This document shows positions 17,597-24,924 of a stretch of DNA of 32,000 nt, piece by piece. Origin of the DNA: an uncultured archaeon (GTDB lineage Archaea; Iainarchaeota; Iainarchaeia; Iainarchaeales; Iainarchaeaceae). The notes beneath the pieces were generated by a model. It was given only the letters and a program-made list of their open reading frames with translations. It was not told the DNA's origin and ran no database searches. A program made the translations under genes and the position numbers. Where the stretch lies: the NCBI GenBank assembly GCA_964577555.1, contig CAZNZM010000003.1, positions 5,837 through 37,836 of the forward strand, in the 5' to 3' direction. The stretch's first letter is position 1; the number at the start of each line of letters is the position of its first letter.

Positions 17597-18742
17597 TTAT
17601 TGTAGAAATTCTTTCAATTTTTTGTTGCTGTGGTGTTCTTTTTCTTTATTTTCGTTTTTTATTATTTCCATTCGTGGATGTGCGAGTTTTATGTCTTCGT
17701 GTTTTTCTATTTTTTCCAAAAAGTCTTTGATTATTGTGGCTTTAGTTTCCGCAATTGCATCTAAATCGGTTTGATAAATAACGTTAATTCCTATTGAAGC
17801 GGGTTCAAGCTTGATATGGATTTTTGGCTTTGGAATCGGCACTTCGTTGCTTGATTCGACAGTTTTCATTATGTTGATTTGTTCTTTGACTGTTTTTTTA
17901 AGAAAATCGCGTTTTATTTTTTTTGAGGCTTCTTGCAACAAATTCAATGCTTCCTGCCAAGCTCTTTTTTCTGCAAATGTTACGGGCACTTGTGTTTTGA
18001 CAAATTTTTTGACGTTTTCTTCGGTTATTTCTTCAACGATTTTTGCAGCTTTTCTCCAGTTGCTTTCGTATGTAATTGAAAACGTTATTTCATCAGTATA
18101 AAGTCCGCCATTTCTGGAATAGTTTAGAATTGGATTGGTGAGTATAAGTTCGTTTGGAATAGTTATTATTTGTTCGCTTTTATTGTTTGAATCAGCTTTG
18201 GAGCCTTGTATTCTGGTGTACATTAAGTGTATTGATTTGACTTCTCCTTTGATGTTGTTGACTTCTATTTTTTCTCCAAGATTGAACGGGTTTGTCGTTA
18301 TTATGGTTACCCAGCCGACAAAATTCATTATTGGTTTTTGCAGGGCAAATGTAACCCCAAAACCTATTAGCCCCAAAGAGGTTATTATTGCGCCAAAATC
18401 TTTGAAAAAAGTGAATAGCAGAATTATTACAATTATAAACCATACGATATAGGTATATGCTGCAATTATGAGTTTGGATTGGTTTTTCTTTCCTTTGTGT
18501 TCAAGGTATTTTTGCAGAATGGGTTTTGTTATATACAGAAATATTATTGTTTCTAATATTATAATTGACGCGTCTAAAATTTTTGGAAAAATACTGCTAA
18601 AAAAAGTTGGTTTGTCTCCGTATAATTGGCTTACAATGTTTGATATTTGGCTCCAATAAAAGAATATGAATAAGCCTACTATTAGCGCGGAAATTGCAAA
18701 TGTCAGATATGAAATAATGTTCCAAATTTTTGTTTTGTCCAT
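17597..18742 (-). CDS. Mechanosensitive ion channel, MscS family
   Basis: N-terminal TM helices followed by the MscS signature region (ALQKPIMNFVGWVTII..PFNLGEKIEVNNIKGEVKSIHLMYTRIQ). 381 aa. Confidence 0.8.
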   Translation of the reverse strand: MDKTKIWNIISYLTFAISALIVGLFIFFYWSQISNIVSQLYGDKPTFFSSIFPKILDASIIILETIIFLYITKPILQKYLEHKGKKNQSKLIIAAYTYIVWFIIVIILLFTFFKDFGAIITSLGLIGFGVTFALQKPIMNFVGWVTIITTNPFNLGEKIEVNNIKGEVKSIHLMYTRIQGSKADSNNKSEQIITIPNELILTNPILNYSRNGGLYTDEITFSITYESNWRKAAKIVEEITEENVKKFVKTQVPVTFAEKRAWQEALNLLQEASKKIKRDFLKKTVKEQINIMKTVESSNEVPIPKPKIHIKLEPASIGINVIYQTDLDAIAETKATIIKDFLEKIEKHEDIKLAHPRMEIIKNENKEKEHHSNKKLKEFLQ

Positions 18743-18856
18743 TTCATAATAAATAATGGTTTACATTTTAAACATTGATTGTTTTCTTTCTTGTCAAGTG
18801 TAATATATTATTAAAAGAACTTTTTTTCATTTTTGGTAAAAATTCAAGTGTCTTTT

Positions 18857-20131
18857 ATGCTGTCTGGGCCAACAAAATTTATTTTTGCATTTTTCGGAGT
18901 TTTGCTTTTTTCTTTTATTGTGCTTTCTGTTGATTTGTCTTCGCCTTTGGTTAATAATGATTCTAATAATAGCGATTTGAACTTTGGGTTTGACGAGAAT
19001 TTGAGTGTTTTGAAAAAAGACCAAAATAAAGTGTTTGATTATAATTATGGAGAAGAAACAGGTTTTGATTCAAATAGTTTTTTTGATTTGAATGCTGGCG
19101 GTGTTTTTGATGATGTTAATTCTGGGATTGATTTTAACGTTTCTGATTTGAATAATCATGTTGATTTTAATTCAAATTTTGATTTGAATGCTGGCAAAGT
19201 TTTTGGCGATGTTAATTCTGTTTTTGATTCTAATAGTTTTGATTTGAATGTTGGTGTTGTTGATTCCAATTCAGACCAAGTTTTTGACTTGAATAATGGC
19301 GTTTATGAAAGTTCTGAAAACGACTCTGTGCATGTGAAAAATTCTTATTATGGTGGTGTGGATTTTGTTAAATTGCGTGATGAAATTTCTAAAATGGAAT
19401 TCCAATATGATGCGCTAAAATCCGCTTTTAAGGATTCTTCAGGGGTTGAAAAAATTGCTTTGCGCAATCAGGCAGTGGAAAAAGCAAGGGTTATTTTGCT
19501 TTTGCAAACCGAGCTCATTATTTCCGAATTGGAATACGTAAAACCTGAAGTGGTTGATGTTTCAGAGGTTCAAAAATGTATTGATTATATTTCAGAAAAG
19601 AGGAAATTGCTTGAAGATGTGAATATTTCTTTGTCAAATCTTTCAGATATTTCTTATTCTTTGAGGTCTTTTTGGGAAAAGGAAAAACCTGTTGTGTTGA
19701 AAATGGTTCTTTTGTCTTCTTTGTCAAGAATTTCTGCAGCAATTGAAAAAATAGATTATTTTGTTTCGGGTTTTGAAAGTCTTTCTAATAAGCTTTCTGT
19801 TAGCGATGAAAATAAGGTGTTGTTGACTGGTGTTTCCAAGTTAAAATCCGATTCTGTTGCTTTGGTTTCGGTTGTTCAAAAAGTTTCTTTTGCAGAGTCT
19901 AAGGTTGATGTTAATTCTTATTTAGAATTTTATGATTCTGTGAGGGTCTCAATTGCTTTGGCTAATGCTCTTGCCAAAGAGGATTATGAGGTTATGGGTT
20001 ATCTTTATTTTGCGGTAAAAAATATAATTAATGGCATTGCTGTTCCGCGTGAGATTTCTTCAAAAGTTGATTCATACGTTTATAGCAGCATAAGAGATGA
20101 GCTTTTATTGTCGCTTGAAAATTTCGGTTAG
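18857..20131 (+). CDS. Secreted/surface protein: signal-anchor, N/D/S-rich FDLNAG tandem repeats, about 260-aa helical domain (cassette copy 1)
   Basis: The track ORF starts at TTG 18833; the first ATG (18857) gives MLSGPTKFIFAFFGVLLFSFIVLS. Coding repeats at 19075-19295. The helical domain is homologous by eye to the 23531 product (EKARVILLLQTELIISELEYVK versus EKTRLLLIAQLKAIIEKLKLVE). Confidence 0.6.
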   Translation: MLSGPTKFIFAFFGVLLFSFIVLSVDLSSPLVNNDSNNSDLNFGFDENLSVLKKDQNKVFDYNYGEETGFDSNSFFDLNAGGVFDDVNSGIDFNVSDLNNHVDFNSNFDLNAGKVFGDVNSVFDSNSFDLNVGVVDSNSDQVFDLNNGVYESSENDSVHVKNSYYGGVDFVKLRDEISKMEFQYDALKSAFKDSSGVEKIALRNQAVEKARVILLLQTELIISELEYVKPEVVDVSEVQKCIDYISEKRKLLEDVNISLSNLSDISYSLRSFWEKEKPVVLKMVLLSSLSRISAAIEKIDYFVSGFESLSNKLSVSDENKVLLTGVSKLKSDSVALVSVVQKVSFAESKVDVNSYLEFYDSVRVSIALANALAKEDYEVMGYLYFAVKNIINGIAVPREISSKVDSYVYSSIRDELLLSLENFG

Positions 20132-20142
20132 AGTGGTTTTTT

Positions 20143-20355
20143 ATGGTTTTGAAATTTGTTTGTTTTTTTCTTTTGTTGCTTTTTTTTGTTGGCTGCGTGT
20201 TTGAGCAAAAATCAGGTTTTTCTGATGTTGGTTTTGGTGATGCAAATAATAGTGTTAATTCAATGGTTGGTGTAGAAAAAAAAATCCCTGAATATGATCC
20301 TTTTGTGATTGTTCATGATGATTTTTTGAAAATTGATGTTAATGATTTTGGGTGA
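20143..20355 (+). CDS. Small lipobox-type secreted protein (cassette copy 1 partner)
   Basis: MVLKFVCFFLLLLFFVGC is a signal peptide ending in Cys. The C-terminal DDFLKIDVNDF resembles SDLELVEIDESTF of the 24631 product. Starts 11 nt after the upstream gene. Confidence 0.5.
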   Translation: MVLKFVCFFLLLLFFVGCVFEQKSGFSDVGFGDANNSVNSMVGVEKKIPEYDPFVIVHDDFLKIDVNDFG

Positions 20356-20944
20356 TTTTTTGGATTTTTCTTTTCCTGAATCGCTTGTTTTGTTTGCCAA
20401 GACAAGGCGTTTGAAATTGATTGGCAAGATAGCCAAGGGTTGGAGTTCTGAAATTTTTCTTGCAAAGGATTTTGACGGGGAGAAAGTTGTTCTTAAAGTT
20501 CTTAGTGAAAAATCCAATAGGCGGGAAATGGTTCAAAGGGAATCAAAAAATCTTGGCCTTGCCAATTCTGTAGGTGTTGGTCCAAAGCTTTATTTTTTTG
20601 ATGTTGTTGCCGGCGTTGTTGGGATGGAGTTTGTTGATGGTTTGCCTTTTGGCAAGTGGATTTTTTCAGGTGTTTCAAGGAAGGAGCTTGAAAGATTTAT
20701 TGGCGACCTTTTTTTGCAAGCCAAAAAATTGGATTTGATTGGGCTTGATCATGGACAGCTTGCCGGTTCGGGCAGGAATATTCTTGTGCGCAACGGGTTG
20801 CCTGTTATTATTGATTTTGAAAAGGCTTCTACTTCAAGAAAGGTTCATAATGTGAATGTTGTTGATTCTTTTCTTTTTAGAAGCCGCGGTTCAAAAGTAG
20901 TTGAAAAAGTGTTTTCTGTTTTGGGTTTGAAAAAAGAAAAATAG
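20336..20944 (+). CDS. Small protein-kinase-fold protein (RIO/Bud32/COG2112-like), possibly atypical active site
   Basis: Gly-rich loop IAKGWSSEIFLA, VVLKV lysine, GMEFVDG hinge. LDHGQLAGSGRNILV sits where HGDL..N is expected, followed by IIDFEKAS. The track start is TTG 20333; ATGs are at 20336 and 20342. Overlaps the preceding gene. Confidence 0.5.
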   Translation: MLMILGDFLDFSFPESLVLFAKTRRLKLIGKIAKGWSSEIFLAKDFDGEKVVLKVLSEKSNRREMVQRESKNLGLANSVGVGPKLYFFDVVAGVVGMEFVDGLPFGKWIFSGVSRKELERFIGDLFLQAKKLDLIGLDHGQLAGSGRNILVRNGLPVIIDFEKASTSRKVHNVNVVDSFLFRSRGSKVVEKVFSVLGLKKEK

Positions 20945-20946
20945 TG

Positions 20947-20968
20947 GGGCTTTGAAAGCCCTTTTTTT
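20947..20968 (+). terminator. Intrinsic-terminator-like hairpin plus T7
   Basis: gggctttgaaagccc (arms gggct/agccc) followed by ttttttt, immediately after the kinase-like stop. Shared with the convergent - strand gene. Confidence 0.5.
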
Positions 20969-21410
20969 ATTTTACGAATTTTCTGTCCACTTCAAGTATT
21001 AGGACGTCGCATGCCGCTTTTATTGATTCAAGTTGTTTGATTATTCTTTCTTTTTCCTTTTCAATGTCTTGTATGTTTTCATAAGGTTCTATTGCTTCTC
21101 TGAGCATTGCGCCATCAACATAAGTATATGGGTTTTGGTTGAGTTTTTGGGCTATTCTTTCAACCATTTTGCCAAGCCATATGTTCATTTCGTTTTTTAC
21201 TTGCCCTTTTATTTGTTTTCCCGGGCTAAGGTTCTTTCTAAGCATGTTTACAATTGTTGCTTTTGGGAATGGCAATTTGCTTTCGTCTATATTATCATCT
21301 TCTTCTGATTCAATTAGGTCTTGTTCTTTTTGAGGTTTTTCCTCTATTTTTTCAGCTTTTGGCGTTTGTTGAGCTTCATTGGTTTTTTTTAATTGTTGTA
21401 TAGATTGCAC
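20967..21410 (-). CDS. Histone-fold-like protein with acidic N-terminal extension and C-terminal coiled-coil (tentative)
   Basis: The core LPFPKATIVNMLRKNLSPGKQIKGQVKNEMNIWLGKMVERIAQKLNQNPYTYVDGAMLREAI fits the helix-loop-helix-loop-helix spacing of archaeal histone/NF-Y folds by eye. GTG start at 21410 preceded by GGGGGT. Confidence 0.35.
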   Translation of the reverse strand: MQSIQQLKKTNEAQQTPKAEKIEEKPQKEQDLIESEEDDNIDESKLPFPKATIVNMLRKNLSPGKQIKGQVKNEMNIWLGKMVERIAQKLNQNPYTYVDGAMLREAIEPYENIQDIEKEKERIIKQLESIKAACDVLILEVDRKFVK

Positions 21411-21601
21411 TGTTAAACCCCCTAGTAGATTAATTAAAAGTGATAGTTAATATGTCAAGCATACAAAATTTAAATGCTTCCATGGCGTTATTTTTGCTGT
21501 TGTTAAAATGGTTTTAATAATTTATTTGAGGCGTTTTATTGAAGGTATTTTTTTTGTTTTTGTTCTGATATTATATATACTATATATACTATTTACTTAT
21601 A

Positions 21602-22174
21602 ATGTCTTTGTTTGCAGGTTTTTTTATGAAAAGGGAAACAGGGCTTGTTCAAGTTTATTGGGGCAATGGAAAGGGCAAGACTACTGCTGCGCTTGGTTTG
21701 TGTGTTCGTGCTCTTGGCAGAGGTTTGAAAGTACATTTGGTGCAGTTCCTGAAGGGTGGAATTGAGGGTAATAAGGATTTTGAAGAGTATGGCGAACTTA
21801 TGTCGCTTAAGGAATTCAAGAATTTTTCTTATAAAAGATTCGGCATGAAAAAATGGGTTGTTGGAAAACCCGAGCCGGATCATTTGGCTCAAGCTGAAAT
21901 AGCCCTTGAACATTCAAAAAATGTTGTCTCTTCCGGAGCTTATGATGTAGTGGTGCTTGACGAGATTCTTTATGCGATTCAATTAGGTTTGATTACTGAG
22001 AGTGATGTTTTGGAGTTGATTAAGTCAAAGTCAAAATATTCGGAACTTGTCTTAACTGGTTCTCACATTCCTTTTCAAAATGTTTTTAATATAGCTGATC
22101 TTGTAACTGAAATGAAAAAGCATAAACATCCTTTTGATGCAGGGGTTCCGGCCAGAAAAGGAATTGAATTTTGA
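21602..22174 (+). CDS. cobA: ATP:cob(I)alamin adenosyltransferase, CobA/CobO/BtuR type
   Basis: GLVQVYWGNGKGKTTAALGLCVRALGRGLKVHLVQFLKG P-loop signature, VVLDEILYAI, and the ELVLTGSH...ADLVTEMKKHKHPF..GVPARKGIEF C-terminus. Alternative ATG at 21626. A TATA repeat lies about 25 nt upstream. Confidence 0.8.
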   Translation: MSLFAGFFMKRETGLVQVYWGNGKGKTTAALGLCVRALGRGLKVHLVQFLKGGIEGNKDFEEYGELMSLKEFKNFSYKRFGMKKWVVGKPEPDHLAQAEIALEHSKNVVSSGAYDVVVLDEILYAIQLGLITESDVLELIKSKSKYSELVLTGSHIPFQNVFNIADLVTEMKKHKHPFDAGVPARKGIEF

Positions 22175-22470
22175 ACGAGGAATACATAGATAAATAGGCT
22201 TGTTTTTTTAAGCAGGTTTTTTTGTCATTTTTGATTGTTTATTTTTTTGTTTTTTCTAAATTGAAAAAATATTTTTTTTGTCTTTTTGGCTTTGTTTTTT
22301 GCGAGCCTATCATGTCTTGTTAGTTTTTCATTTTTTGAGATTTGAGCCATTTTTTTGCAAGCCAGTTTTTTTTATGGCGTTTATTTTTTGCCTTGTTTTT
22401 TTGGTTGACTTTTCAAATAATTATTTTTTTTTTTAATTAGCTTTATTTTTTTTGTTTTGACTAGCCGTTT
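22175..22470 (+). repeat. T-tract spacer with RAGCC-T(n) units
   Basis: gcgagcctatc (~22301), tgagccattttttt (~22343), gcaagccagtttttttt (~22357), gactagccgtttttttt (~22460). Confidence 0.65.
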
Positions 22471-22578
22471 TTTTTGAGTCGAATTTTTATTTGGTCAAAA
22501 GTAAGCTTTTTGTTAAATATGGAAAATAATTTTTTTTTGCAGTTATCAATATAAAACCTCATTTGCTTTTTGTATTGT

Positions 22579-23418
22579 ATGCTTAAACCTGATAAATTGC
22601 TTTTTGCGCCTGCAGGCATACCTATTTGTACCGAGCCGCGCGATACCGAAAATGGCATCAGGACAACCAAAAAGTTGGGTTTGGGCGCCATGGAGTTGGA
22701 GTTTGTGCAAAGCGTTTTTATAACAAAAGATAAAGCGCCAGGCATTAGAAAGGTTGCTGAAGAGGAAGGAATTGTGCTTACTTGCCATGCCCCGTATTTT
22801 ATAAATTTGAATGCGGTTGAGCCTGAAAAAAAAGGGGCTTCAAGATCAAGAATAATTCAAAGCGCCAAAATACTTGAGCTTTGCGGGGGTTATTCTGTTT
22901 GTTTTCATCCTGGCTTTTATCTAAAAGACTCCAAAGCCCAGGCTTATAAAAACGTGAAAGAGCAATTGGCTAAAGTTATGGATGAAGTAAAACAACTTGG
23001 TTTAAAGGTGTGGATTAGGCCAGAAACAACCGGCAAGCCAACTCAATTTGGCTCTGTTGAAGAATTGTGTGATTTGAGTGCTGAATTTGATCAGGTTTTG
23101 CCAGTAATTGATTTTTCGCATTTGCATGCACGAACTAATGGCAAGTATAATTCAAAAGAGGAGTTTAAACATATTTTGGAGTTGATTGAAAAGAAAAACG
23201 GAAAAATTGCTTTGCATAACATGCATATTCATATTTCTGGCATTGCTTATAATGAAAAAGGCGAAAAAAATCATCTTGAATTGAATTCCAGCGACATGAA
23301 TTATCTCGCTGTGCTCGAAGTATTAAAAGAATTTGGGGCTAAAGGAGTGGTTGTTTCGGAAAGCCCTAATATTGAACAAGATGCTATTATGTTGCAAAAA
23401 AAATATGTTGATTTGTGA
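22579..23418 (+). CDS. nfo: Endonuclease IV-like / xylose-isomerase-like TIM-barrel protein (AP endonuclease family 2)
   Basis: LGLGAMELEF, CHAPYFINL, CFHPG, IRPETTGK and IDFSHLHAR motifs at the spacing of the metal-binding residues in Endo IV-family TIM barrels. The track start is TTG 22570; the first ATG is at 22579. Confidence 0.7.
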   Translation: MLKPDKLLFAPAGIPICTEPRDTENGIRTTKKLGLGAMELEFVQSVFITKDKAPGIRKVAEEEGIVLTCHAPYFINLNAVEPEKKGASRSRIIQSAKILELCGGYSVCFHPGFYLKDSKAQAYKNVKEQLAKVMDEVKQLGLKVWIRPETTGKPTQFGSVEELCDLSAEFDQVLPVIDFSHLHARTNGKYNSKEEFKHILELIEKKNGKIALHNMHIHISGIAYNEKGEKNHLELNSSDMNYLAVLEVLKEFGAKGVVVSESPNIEQDAIMLQKKYVDL

Positions 23419-23530
23419 TTATGCTTAATCAAAAAGCAAAAATTTTGCCAAAAATGTCCTAAAACAAGGTAAAAAGGTTTAAATTATACTTATTATATTA
23501 ATTAGTAAATTTATTTTAGGAGGTGTTTTA

Positions 23531-24634
23531 ATGATTTTTAAAAAATCATTTGTAATTGCCTCGTCTTTGATTTTTATATTGATGAGTGCAATAGCATTTT
23601 CAGAATCTGATAATACTACATCTGATAATACTACTAATACAGATGGCAGTAATACTGGTAGTGAACCGAATAAAGTTGTCACCAAGGTTCCAAATGTTGT
23701 AAAACCAAAACCGGTGGCTAATGTTGTTAGGCCTGTTCCTGATAGGAATTTTGTTAGGCCTGATGTTGTTAGGCCTGTTCCTGATAGGGATTTGAACCCA
23801 GTAGTTACACCATTTGTTAAAGCCAAGATTTTCGATAAGATAAAATCGGAATTGGATTCAAATTATTCAAATTTTTTGGCTGTAAAGGAAAAACTTAAAA
23901 TAGCAAAAGATAAAATCGAAAAGGAGAAAGTTAGAAAAGAATTGCAAGAAAAAACAAGGCTTTTGCTGATTGCTCAACTAAAAGCAATAATAGAAAAGCT
24001 AAAATTGGTTGAAAGCAATGGTGTTGCAGACGAGGAAACTAAAAGAGCTATTGAAGTTCTTGAAAAAAAATTGAATAATCTGCAAAATAGCAATGATTTG
24101 AATGTTTCAGATCTTCAATCAGTTTCCAGTGAGTCAAAGAAAATTTTTGAACGCAATGAAGCAAGAGTAAAGGCAAAAATCGGTCTTGAAATGGCTGAAA
24201 AATATCTTAAAACAATAGCCAAAGCCGAAGCCTATTCAAAAAGGCTTGGCGAAATAATTTCTTCCTTAAAAGCAGCTGGCAAAGATACTTCAAGGCTTCA
24301 AACCGCAAAAGAAAAGCTTGATAAAGACATAGAAAGAATAAAGTCGGTTGCTTTGTCTTTGAAGGAAAAGTTTGCCGCCGCTAATACTAAAGAAGAAACT
24401 CTTGAAGTAATGAAAGAAGCACACAATAAATTAAGAATTATTCATAAAGAAATCCAAAAAGATATTATTCTCATAAGGCTTGCTTTCATAGGAGCAAAAG
24501 AAATTTCTGAAAAAGGAGAATTATCTGTAAATACAAGCGATGAAATTGAAGAAGTCGTTTCAGGCGAAGCAAGTGCTGTAACTGAATTAAATGTTCCTTC
24601 AGAAGAATTAACTGCAGGAGGTGAAGCACAATGA
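23531..24634 (+). CDS. Secreted/surface protein: signal peptide, T/N/D-rich linker, VVRPVPDR repeats, about 270-aa K/E-rich helical domain (cassette copy 2)
   Basis: A strong AGGAGGTG Shine-Dalgarno sequence lies 6 nt upstream of the ATG. Signal peptide MIFKKSFVIASSLIFILMSAIAFS. A 24-bp perfect coding repeat occurs at 23724-23747 and 23763-23786. The helical domain is homologous by eye to the 18857 product. Confidence 0.65.
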   Translation: MIFKKSFVIASSLIFILMSAIAFSESDNTTSDNTTNTDGSNTGSEPNKVVTKVPNVVKPKPVANVVRPVPDRNFVRPDVVRPVPDRDLNPVVTPFVKAKIFDKIKSELDSNYSNFLAVKEKLKIAKDKIEKEKVRKELQEKTRLLLIAQLKAIIEKLKLVESNGVADEETKRAIEVLEKKLNNLQNSNDLNVSDLQSVSSESKKIFERNEARVKAKIGLEMAEKYLKTIAKAEAYSKRLGEIISSLKAAGKDTSRLQTAKEKLDKDIERIKSVALSLKEKFAAANTKEETLEVMKEAHNKLRIIHKEIQKDIILIRLAFIGAKEISEKGELSVNTSDEIEEVVSGEASAVTELNVPSEELTAGGEAQ

Positions 24635-24924
24635 ATGCGGCAAAAATAAGCGTTGTTTTCGTATTTTTGGCTTTTGCATTGGTTTTGGCTGGTTGTTCTA
24701 ATAAACCTGTTCCTCCTCCAAATCCACCTCAAAATGATGTTAAGGTTGATGTAAAGCAGGACAATCCTGTGACTGAAAAGCCTGCCAATGTAGAACCTGT
24801 TAAAGTACCTTCGGACGAATTAAACGATATTCAAAAGGAGCTTGCAGAAATGGAAAAGACCATTGAAAGTGAAAATTCGTCTGATTTGGAGTTGGTTGAA
24901 ATAGATGAAAGCACCTTCCAATGA
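24631..24924 (+). CDS. Small lipoprotein (LAGC lipobox), Pro-rich linker, acidic C-terminus (cassette copy 2 partner)
   Basis: MNAAKISVVFVFLAFALVLAGCSNKP has a canonical lipobox. ATGA overlap with the upstream gene. The C-terminal motif is similar to the 20143 product. Confidence 0.6.
   Translation: MNAAKISVVFVFLAFALVLAGCSNKPVPPPNPPQNDVKVDVKQDNPVTEKPANVEPVKVPSDELNDIQKELAEMEKTIESENSSDLELVEIDESTFQ

Follow-up and report, generated by a model that had tools for sequence, protein, structure and literature searches.

The stretch of DNA under study (the window) comprises 32,000 nt of contig CAZNZM010000003.1, from an archaeal genome (G000) of 979 kb that is 95.5% complete. It carries two gene pairs on the forward strand, each consisting of a gene for a large protein with a signal peptide and a six-helix domain and a gene directly downstream for a small protein with a lipobox. 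The two pairs are paralogous copies of one cassette, as the first-pass annotation of the window had proposed, and all four open reading frames (orfs) were confirmed at their annotated coordinates. In copy 1, large1 (P0001, 424 aa; 18857..20131) starts at the ATG at 18857 and not at the TTG at 18833, in agreement with the N-termini of its homologues P0006 and P0007. Its signal peptide is followed by a disordered region, rich in N, D and S, that carries the FDLNAG.VF.DVNS repeats (residues ~22-164, nt ~18920-19348), and by the six-helix domain (residues 170-423, nt ~19364-20125). The partner small1 (P0002, 70 aa; 20143..20355) has a signal peptide, the lipobox FVGC and a C-terminus that ends in DDFLKIDVNDFG. 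In copy 2, large2 (P0003, 367 aa; 23531..24634) consists of a signal peptide, an N/T/S-rich linker with two VVRPVPDR motifs (residues 24-93), the six-helix domain (residues 94-345, nt 23810-24565) and an acidic tail, and small2 (P0004, 97 aa; 24631..24924) consists of the lipobox LAGC with Cys22 (nt 24694-24696), a Pro-rich linker, an acidic helix and the C-terminal motif LELVEIDESTFQ (nt 24886-24921). The motifs read in these sequences agree with the earlier prediction that both products are extracytoplasmic, the large one as a Sec-type secreted protein and the small one as a lipobox protein. In the alignment of the six-helix family (A1), predicted AxA-type cleavage sites of the signal peptide may be placed at AFS/ES in large2 and LS-VD in large1, each followed by a variable linker.

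The start codon of small2 overlaps the stop codon of large2 (ATGA), and the Shine-Dalgarno sequence of small2 (GGAGGTG, 24617-24623) lies within the final codons of large2; translational coupling of the two genes is therefore implied at this junction (24617..24634). Equal overlaps of -3 or -7 nt between large and small genes are found in relatives. The C-terminal sequence GGE(A/E)Q of the large protein, conserved in the genus, is encoded by the Shine-Dalgarno sequence of the partner gene; at 24617-24634 a translation signal dictates the protein sequence.

Homology of the two large proteins

The helical domains of large1 and large2, about 245 aa in length, are homologous. The first-pass annotation had remarked on the strong divergence of the two copies, and direct comparison by BLASTP indeed gives only a poor match (E = 0.002, 22% identity over 192 aa). 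This poor match, together with the failure of BLASTP to align small1 with small2 and the automatic annotation by JGI of one homologue (P0005) as an SbcC-like coiled coil, would be expected if two unrelated coiled-coil or low-complexity secreted proteins happened to be followed by chance small orfs. That explanation is extremely improbable for the locus. The large proteins already refute it, which leaves only the homology statistics of small1 at issue. Alignment by hhalign of a profile of the four copy-1 clade sequences with a profile of 20 other, independent sequences gave a probability of 99.85% and an E value of 1.1e-30 over 244 columns, and therefore the similarity goes far past that of coiled coils or low complexity, the possibility that had been raised earlier as the test of the proposal. 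In a six-frame HMMER search of the 979-kb genome, each large protein was the only helical-domain match of the other (E = 1.9e-6 and 8.6e-6), and the repeat region of large1 additionally matched one other secreted protein. When 40 related genomes were searched, large1 and large2 both found one and the same single gene in relatives. The AlphaFold2 models, computed from an alignment of 25 rows, have a predicted local distance difference test score (pLDDT) above 90 for both helical domains and a common six-helix pattern, with helix lengths of 31/35/19/57/30/42 residues in large2 and 24/36/18/54/32/40 residues in large1. Chance orfs are likewise hard to reconcile with a partner orf that is kept in more than 60 homologous loci.

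Of the two proteins, large2 is nearer to the family consensus and large1 is more diverged. As a single query, large2 matches relatives with E values down to 1.9e-50, and it matches profile A1, which includes large2 itself, with 1e-98. The loop between helices 4 and 5 bears the family motif G-K-D-T/V-S, which reads GKDTS in large2, GKDV in P0007 and SDEN in large1; the motif thus appears degenerated in part of the copy-1 clade. Some distant members of the family (L069, L071/L072 and L073) continue after the six-helix domain into Gly-rich repeats resembling a beta-helix (GTGT or GSG), PKD domains or long D/E/S tails, and the helical domain therefore acts as a conserved base for variable C-terminal appendages.

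No family could be recognised in the first pass, and none emerged from database searches. Pfam, NCBIfam, PADLOC and PHROGs returned only coiled-coil and lipobox noise for the four proteins, 25 family members and 10 distant members, and a profile search of the PDB by sequence returned only coiled-coil noise. Foldseek comparison of both AlphaFold2 models with the PDB gave nothing significant (best E values 0.28 and 0.024, TM scores below 0.25). The recurrent top matches were F-BAR domains and the sensor domains of TorS and McpS (TM scores of 0.1-0.3, root-mean-square deviation above 11 Å). These resemble the family in having about 250 residues of long antiparallel helices, and the combination of two long and four shorter helices recalls helical bimodular (HBM) sensor domains; all such matches are non-significant (E at least 0.02) and are accompanied by no sequence match, so HBM and F-BAR were rejected as identities. 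An SbcC/SMC-type ATPase was rejected as well, the matches being noise (SbcC E = 0.59, TrlF E = 3.8e-4, far below the cut-offs) and the protein having a signal peptide, a length of 367 aa and no head domains. A third candidate was DUF5667 (PF18915), a domain found in an exported helical protein encoded between the cassette and an M48 protease gene in Methanohalophilus mahii (L083:10079-11035). This protein is exported, all-helical and of similar size, and shows a local resemblance in an AGKD(P/T)S loop (AGKDPS in M. mahii, compared with GKDTS in the family), but hhalign gave a probability of only 3.5% and no family member matches PF18915.

The small partners and the distribution of the pair

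An alignment of 19 partner orfs (A2) defines a common layout of a lipobox with the pattern [LVIF][ASFV]GC, a low-complexity linker, an acidic helix and an extreme C-terminal motif [FL]xE[LIV]DE[ST]TF-x; the G and C columns of the lipobox are kept in at least 90% of the sequences. With a leave-one-out profile built without the sequences of this genome, small2 was detected with an E value of 4.6e-14, and still with 2.5e-10 after removal of the signal peptide, which makes its membership of the partner family clear. The closest relatives of small1 were obtained from the P0006 and P0007 contigs. This clade keeps the lipobox and the ending DDFLK[IV]D[AV]NDFG and is without the acidic helix of the family. 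Against the main family it aligns at the lipobox (probability 79%). The similarity between the C-terminal motifs of small1 and small2 that had been pointed out earlier holds as to register, which is the same over the final 14 residues, but it is not statistically significant (E = 0.011, probability 3.7%). Accordingly, small1 may be assigned to the partner family by its position, size, lipobox and C-terminal motif only. Both lipoboxes are present as first annotated; about 13 credible lipobox orfs were counted in the genome. Lipoproteins and the lipidation enzyme AliA have been reported in DPANN archaea (PMC12462473).

The partner shares with Braun's lipoprotein (Lpp) the character of a tiny lipobox protein whose mature part is a short linker and a helix, with a conserved C-terminal end that is presumably functional, and a role as a tether from the membrane to an outer component is plausible for the archaeal protein too. 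It differs in that the archaeal cell has no peptidoglycan or outer membrane, in ending with DESTF-x rather than a cross-linking lysine, in being strongly acidic and in always being paired with a six-helix protein. Membership of the Lpp family was rejected: there is no Pfam or NCBIfam match to Lpp, the C-termini end in STFQ and NDFG, and the genome is archaeal. The phage spanins Rz and Rz1 are another pair in which a helical protein, carrying a hydrophobic segment at its N-terminus, is encoded by a gene overlapping that of a small Pro-rich lipoprotein, and the spanin partners interact through their C-termini. Here, in contrast, the large protein has a predicted cleavable AxA-type signal peptide in place of a transmembrane anchor, and the pair belongs to the core chromosome of archaea with a single membrane; the context is one of housekeeping genes without phage or lysis genes, and the sole PHROG match is that of small2 over its lipobox (E = 0.009), so a spanin identity was rejected. 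An origin of the small gene as a duplicate of the 3' end of the large gene was considered after MAFFT aligned the last helix and tail of a large protein with a small protein and the sequence MNKQIL was seen in both proteins of one locus; it was rejected by hhalign (probability 0.2%). At one locus (L020), the large and small genes are in frame, separated by one TGA codon and a 12-nt spacer.

The earlier expectation that the small orfs would be conserved beside homologues of the large genes was borne out, a small lipobox orf being found directly downstream in essentially every locus examined. In the family of archaea to which the window belongs, it overlaps or adjoins the stop codon of the large gene; it is also present at that position in 14 of 15 further loci of the DPANN-type order, on three unrelated contigs and, in a second phylum, in 10 of 10 and 20 of 20 loci. 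An exhaustive HMMER search with the family profile found 1,631 clusters (defined at 50% identity) at E values of 1e-3 or less, of which 660 were at 1e-10 or less. The large-protein family occurs in 54 of 215 genomes sampled from the phylum of the window, where among the matches listed all were in the order of the window, and in 37 of 201 genomes of the second phylum. Named carriers in this second phylum are Methanolobus species, Methanohalobium evestigatum (Metev_0894), Methanosalsum zhilinae (Mzhil_0862) and Methanohalophilus, free-living methanogens with genomes of 1.2-4.1 Mb. Their large proteins are annotated as hypothetical proteins and the partner as a lipoprotein or, automatically, as Lpp (IMG, Methanolobus). 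The cassette is single-copy in most relatives, tandem duplicates being found also in several genomes of the methanogen phylum. In the window's own family its neighbours are conserved housekeeping genes (thermosome, Bud32-like kinase), and in the second phylum it is often followed by an HtpX-like M48 protease gene (11 of 20 loci). No papers were found when the literature was searched for the locus tags, accessions and DUF7343, the domain of a regulator described below; the family and the module appear to be undescribed.

A variable linker or repeat region precedes the helical domain of the large proteins. The repeat modules annotated in the first pass are real at both the protein and DNA levels: FDLNAG.VF.DVNS occurs twice in large1 along with degenerate copies, the DNA copies beginning at 19081, 19177 and 19237, and VVRPVPDR occurs twice in large2, where the perfect DNA repeat TTGTTAGGCCTGTTCCTGATA lies at 23724-23744 and 23766-23786. 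TRF detected arrays at 19144-19189 in large1 and at 23728-23788 in large2. The linker and repeat regions of both proteins are predicted to be disordered (AlphaFold2 pLDDT below 50). The number of repeats varies among close relatives, as between P0006 and large1. A second secreted protein with repeats of the FDLN/VNS type (L002, G000:C3:1036-1822) is encoded about 4 kb before the start of the window, and its repeats are 69% identical to residues 87-148 of large1. Because an assembly gap (a stretch of N) breaks its orf, the repeat array is probably collapsed or unresolved.

Such features bear on the proposal of the first-pass annotation that the cassette is a host-interaction or adhesin module of an episymbiont, in which duplicated and rapidly diverging pairs would contact the host or at least copy 1 would have been recruited for this purpose after duplication. 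The long disordered N/D/S-rich repeat region of copy 1, the sharing of its repeat with another secreted protein, the difference in repeat number between close relatives, the much longer branches of copy 1 than of copy 2 and the DPANN-like size of the genome (0.98 Mb) are what this proposal would lead one to expect. However, the family occurs together with its lipoprotein partner in free-living methanogens, and the cassette is therefore not symbiont-specific; most relatives have one copy, set among conserved housekeeping genes; the conserved part of the protein is the helical domain and not the variable region; and no adhesin-type domain was found in Pfam scans of the window proteins and family members. 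A host-interaction role for the cassette is weakly supported and unlikely, and the link to an episymbiotic lifestyle found no support in the survey of relatives. Copy 1, which has diverged and has variable repeats, may possibly have a role in contact with the host.

A membrane-bound regulator and its loss

A third part of the module, missed when the cassette was first taken to have two genes, is found in relatives: a divergently transcribed gene for a membrane-bound regulator, with an operator. A DUF7343 gene lies just upstream of the large gene, and is transcribed away from it, in Methanolobus psychrophilus and Methanohalophilus mahii and on another archaeal contig. The regulator consists of a signal peptide, a beta-sandwich resembling CarboxypepD_reg, one transmembrane helix and a C-terminal MarR-like winged helix-turn-helix domain; the DUF7343 match has an E value of ~1e-17 and the CarboxypepD_reg matches are weak. 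With a regulator profile, the gene was located at this position in 17 of the 20 second-phylum loci and in eight distant loci of the DPANN-type order. Within the window's own family, it occurs in 13 of 14 cassette-bearing genomes outside the genus of the window and in none of four genomes without the cassette; one genome (G008) has the cassette and not the regulator. Of 13 loci from this family and one neighbouring family (G038), 9 carry in the intergenic region two TAAAG[C/T]TTTA palindromes exactly 30 bp apart, placed upstream of the large gene's TATA box. In each of four genomes tested, the palindrome pair occurs once, at the intergenic site between the regulator and the large gene. Presumably the regulator binds the palindrome pair, as its position and conservation suggest. 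The gene pair is ancestrally linked to this dedicated regulator.

The arrangement in relatives, with a membrane-spanning DNA-binding regulator beside exported partners, resembles those of the bacterial one-component transmembrane regulators with periplasmic partners (ToxR/ToxS, CadC) and of the Cpx envelope-stress system, in which CpxP is a helical periplasmic protein, NlpE is a lipoprotein and HtpX is a member of the regulon. The likeness to Cpx extends to one all-helical partner and one lipoprotein, and to the HtpX-type M48 protease that is a frequent neighbour in methanogens. The likeness is organisational only: there is no histidine kinase, the regulator is not in the window's genome, and the topology is opposite to that of ToxR, the DUF7343 regulator having an N-terminal extracellular beta-sandwich and a C-terminal DNA-binding domain. 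CpxP/Spy (LTXXQ) was rejected as an identity for the helical protein, no Pfam match being found in the 25 family members and 10 distant members scanned.

The regulator was found in none of five genomes of the window's genus and is not among any of the orfs of G000. The TAAAGYTTTA palindrome does not occur in the window and no palindrome pair occurs anywhere in G000; specifically, no such operator was found in the A/T-rich region with TATA-like stretches upstream of large1 (18743..18856, forward strand), or upstream of large2 (23478..23525), where a TATA-like sequence TTTAAATTATA at 23478-23488 and a Shine-Dalgarno sequence AGGAGGTG at 23518-23525 were identified on the forward strand. With up to one mismatch, TAAAGYTTTA occurs four times in the whole window, compared with about 19 occurrences expected from shuffled sequences, and is thus under-represented. 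The sole DUF7343 protein of the genome (L084, G000:C2:88108-88638) is a different regulator of 176 aa with two transmembrane helices and a winged helix-turn-helix domain; its gene adjoins an Hsp20 gene and a fragment of a P-type ATPase gene, without linkage to the cassette. The absence of the cassette's own regulator is a lineage-specific loss and not grounds to exclude the genes of the window from the family.

Gene order indicates where the regulator was. In G038 the order is thermosome, regulator, large gene, small gene, Bud32-like kinase and orf147; in the window and on a JGI contig it is thermosome, MscS, large1, small1, kinase and orf147. Because of this synteny, copy 1 is placed at the ancestral site, large1 being the positional orthologue of the single gene of the family, with the MscS-type channel gene (17597..18742, reverse strand) where relatives carry the divergent DUF7343 regulator. 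The gene on the other side (20360..20944, forward strand) encodes a divergent Bud32/RIO-like kinase and is kept downstream of the cassette across the DPANN-type order. Its NCBIfam match to Bud32 has an E value of 1e-8, far below the cut-off, its start codon is probably 5 nt past the stop codon of small1, and it is probably not a functional part of the module. Copy 2 lies 3.2 kb downstream, between genes for an AP endonuclease and ferredoxin/Bcp, and has equal neighbours in two other genomes of the genus; G001 carries both copies. Phylogenetic analysis groups each copy in a clade with good support (99/98 and 100/99) and a long stem, and the paths to copy 1 are longer. A duplication of the cassette within the genus is likely, though not proven.

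The tight divergent linkage and co-occurrence of regulator and cassette in two phyla could also mean that the helical protein and the lipoprotein are signalling accessories, that is, co-sensors that modulate the regulator as ToxS does ToxR, or as CpxP and NlpE do CpxA, rather than the regulator's output. The extracellular domain of the regulator could meet the exported partners, and an operator pair unique to the locus in each genome is what would be expected of an autoregulated sensory unit. Against this, the cassette is kept in the genus of the window, and is even present there in two copies, although the regulator is gone, and G008 likewise has the cassette alone; because the pair is retained without the regulator, it must have a function of its own. 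A purely accessory role is accordingly rather improbable.

Probable function as an envelope module

The two gene pairs are paralogous copies of an old, widespread and unnamed archaeal module that most likely belongs to the envelope and specifies a lipoprotein-associated extracytoplasmic complex. The large protein would be exported by the Sec pathway and would consist of the six-helix domain of ~245 residues after a variable, disordered and probably glycosylated linker, and the small partner would be a translationally coupled acidic lipoprotein with its lipobox cysteine, flexible linker, acidic helix and terminal [FL]xE[LIV]DEsTF-x motif. The two may be produced at a constant ratio and assemble into a complex at the outer surface of the membrane. 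There the lipid-anchored small protein could use its C-terminal helix and motif to hold the helical protein, and the large protein's variable linker or appended domains would point outward. The two palindromes before the large gene's TATA box, seen in the window's own family and a neighbouring one, would be the binding sites of the regulator. The genus of the window has lost the regulator, an MscS gene now lies at its former site, and the cassette was probably duplicated there; copy 2 would have retained the features of the family, and copy 1 at the ancestral site would have diverged, gaining the FDLN-type repeats and losing the GKDT loop motif, as small1 lost the acidic helix. The regulator and its genomic company suggest a function that responds to the state of the envelope, in maintenance or stress, rather than adhesion.

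Several observations weigh against this picture of an envelope complex and its duplication in the genus. The node that joins the two copy clades is poorly supported (29/77), and because of this a transfer of one copy is a possible alternative to duplication. The leave-one-out partner profile does not detect small1. A physical complex of large and small proteins is inferred, and no consistent charge complementarity was seen between the helical domains and the acidic partner. Export and lipidation of the partner are predicted from motifs only. The fold gives no hint of function because it has no significant structural neighbour, and the idea of envelope stress derives only from the type of regulator and from the M48 protease neighbour at 11 of the 20 second-phylum loci.

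The broader proposal that regulator (transmembrane beta-sandwich and winged helix-turn-helix), secreted six-helix protein and acidic lipoprotein together are a three-gene extracytoplasmic sensing or protection system of a new archaeal type is speculative, and must be offered with low confidence. If it is true, the lipoprotein and the helical protein would report on or repair the state of the envelope, the regulator would autoregulate the unit through the paired palindromes, and the genus of the window would be a natural variant in which the system is duplicated and has no regulator.

Very little is known of how the structures outside the single archaeal membrane are built, tethered and monitored, and the first archaeal enzymes of lipoprotein biogenesis were identified only in 2025 (PMC12462473). 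The proposed envelope module centres on a gene pair, unnamed in any database, that spans tiny DPANN-type genomes and cultured methanogens and is nearly always accompanied by its own membrane-spanning transcription regulator, with a precisely spaced operator in the window's family and one neighbouring family. Its presence in methanogens corrects the tempting over-interpretation of the cassette as a symbiont-specific device for host interaction. In cultured Methanolobus, Methanohalophilus and Methanohalobium, the tethering function of the lipoprotein, the signal perceived by the regulator and the state of the envelope without the module are all testable, while the genus of the window offers a natural experiment in regulator loss, duplication and asymmetric divergence.

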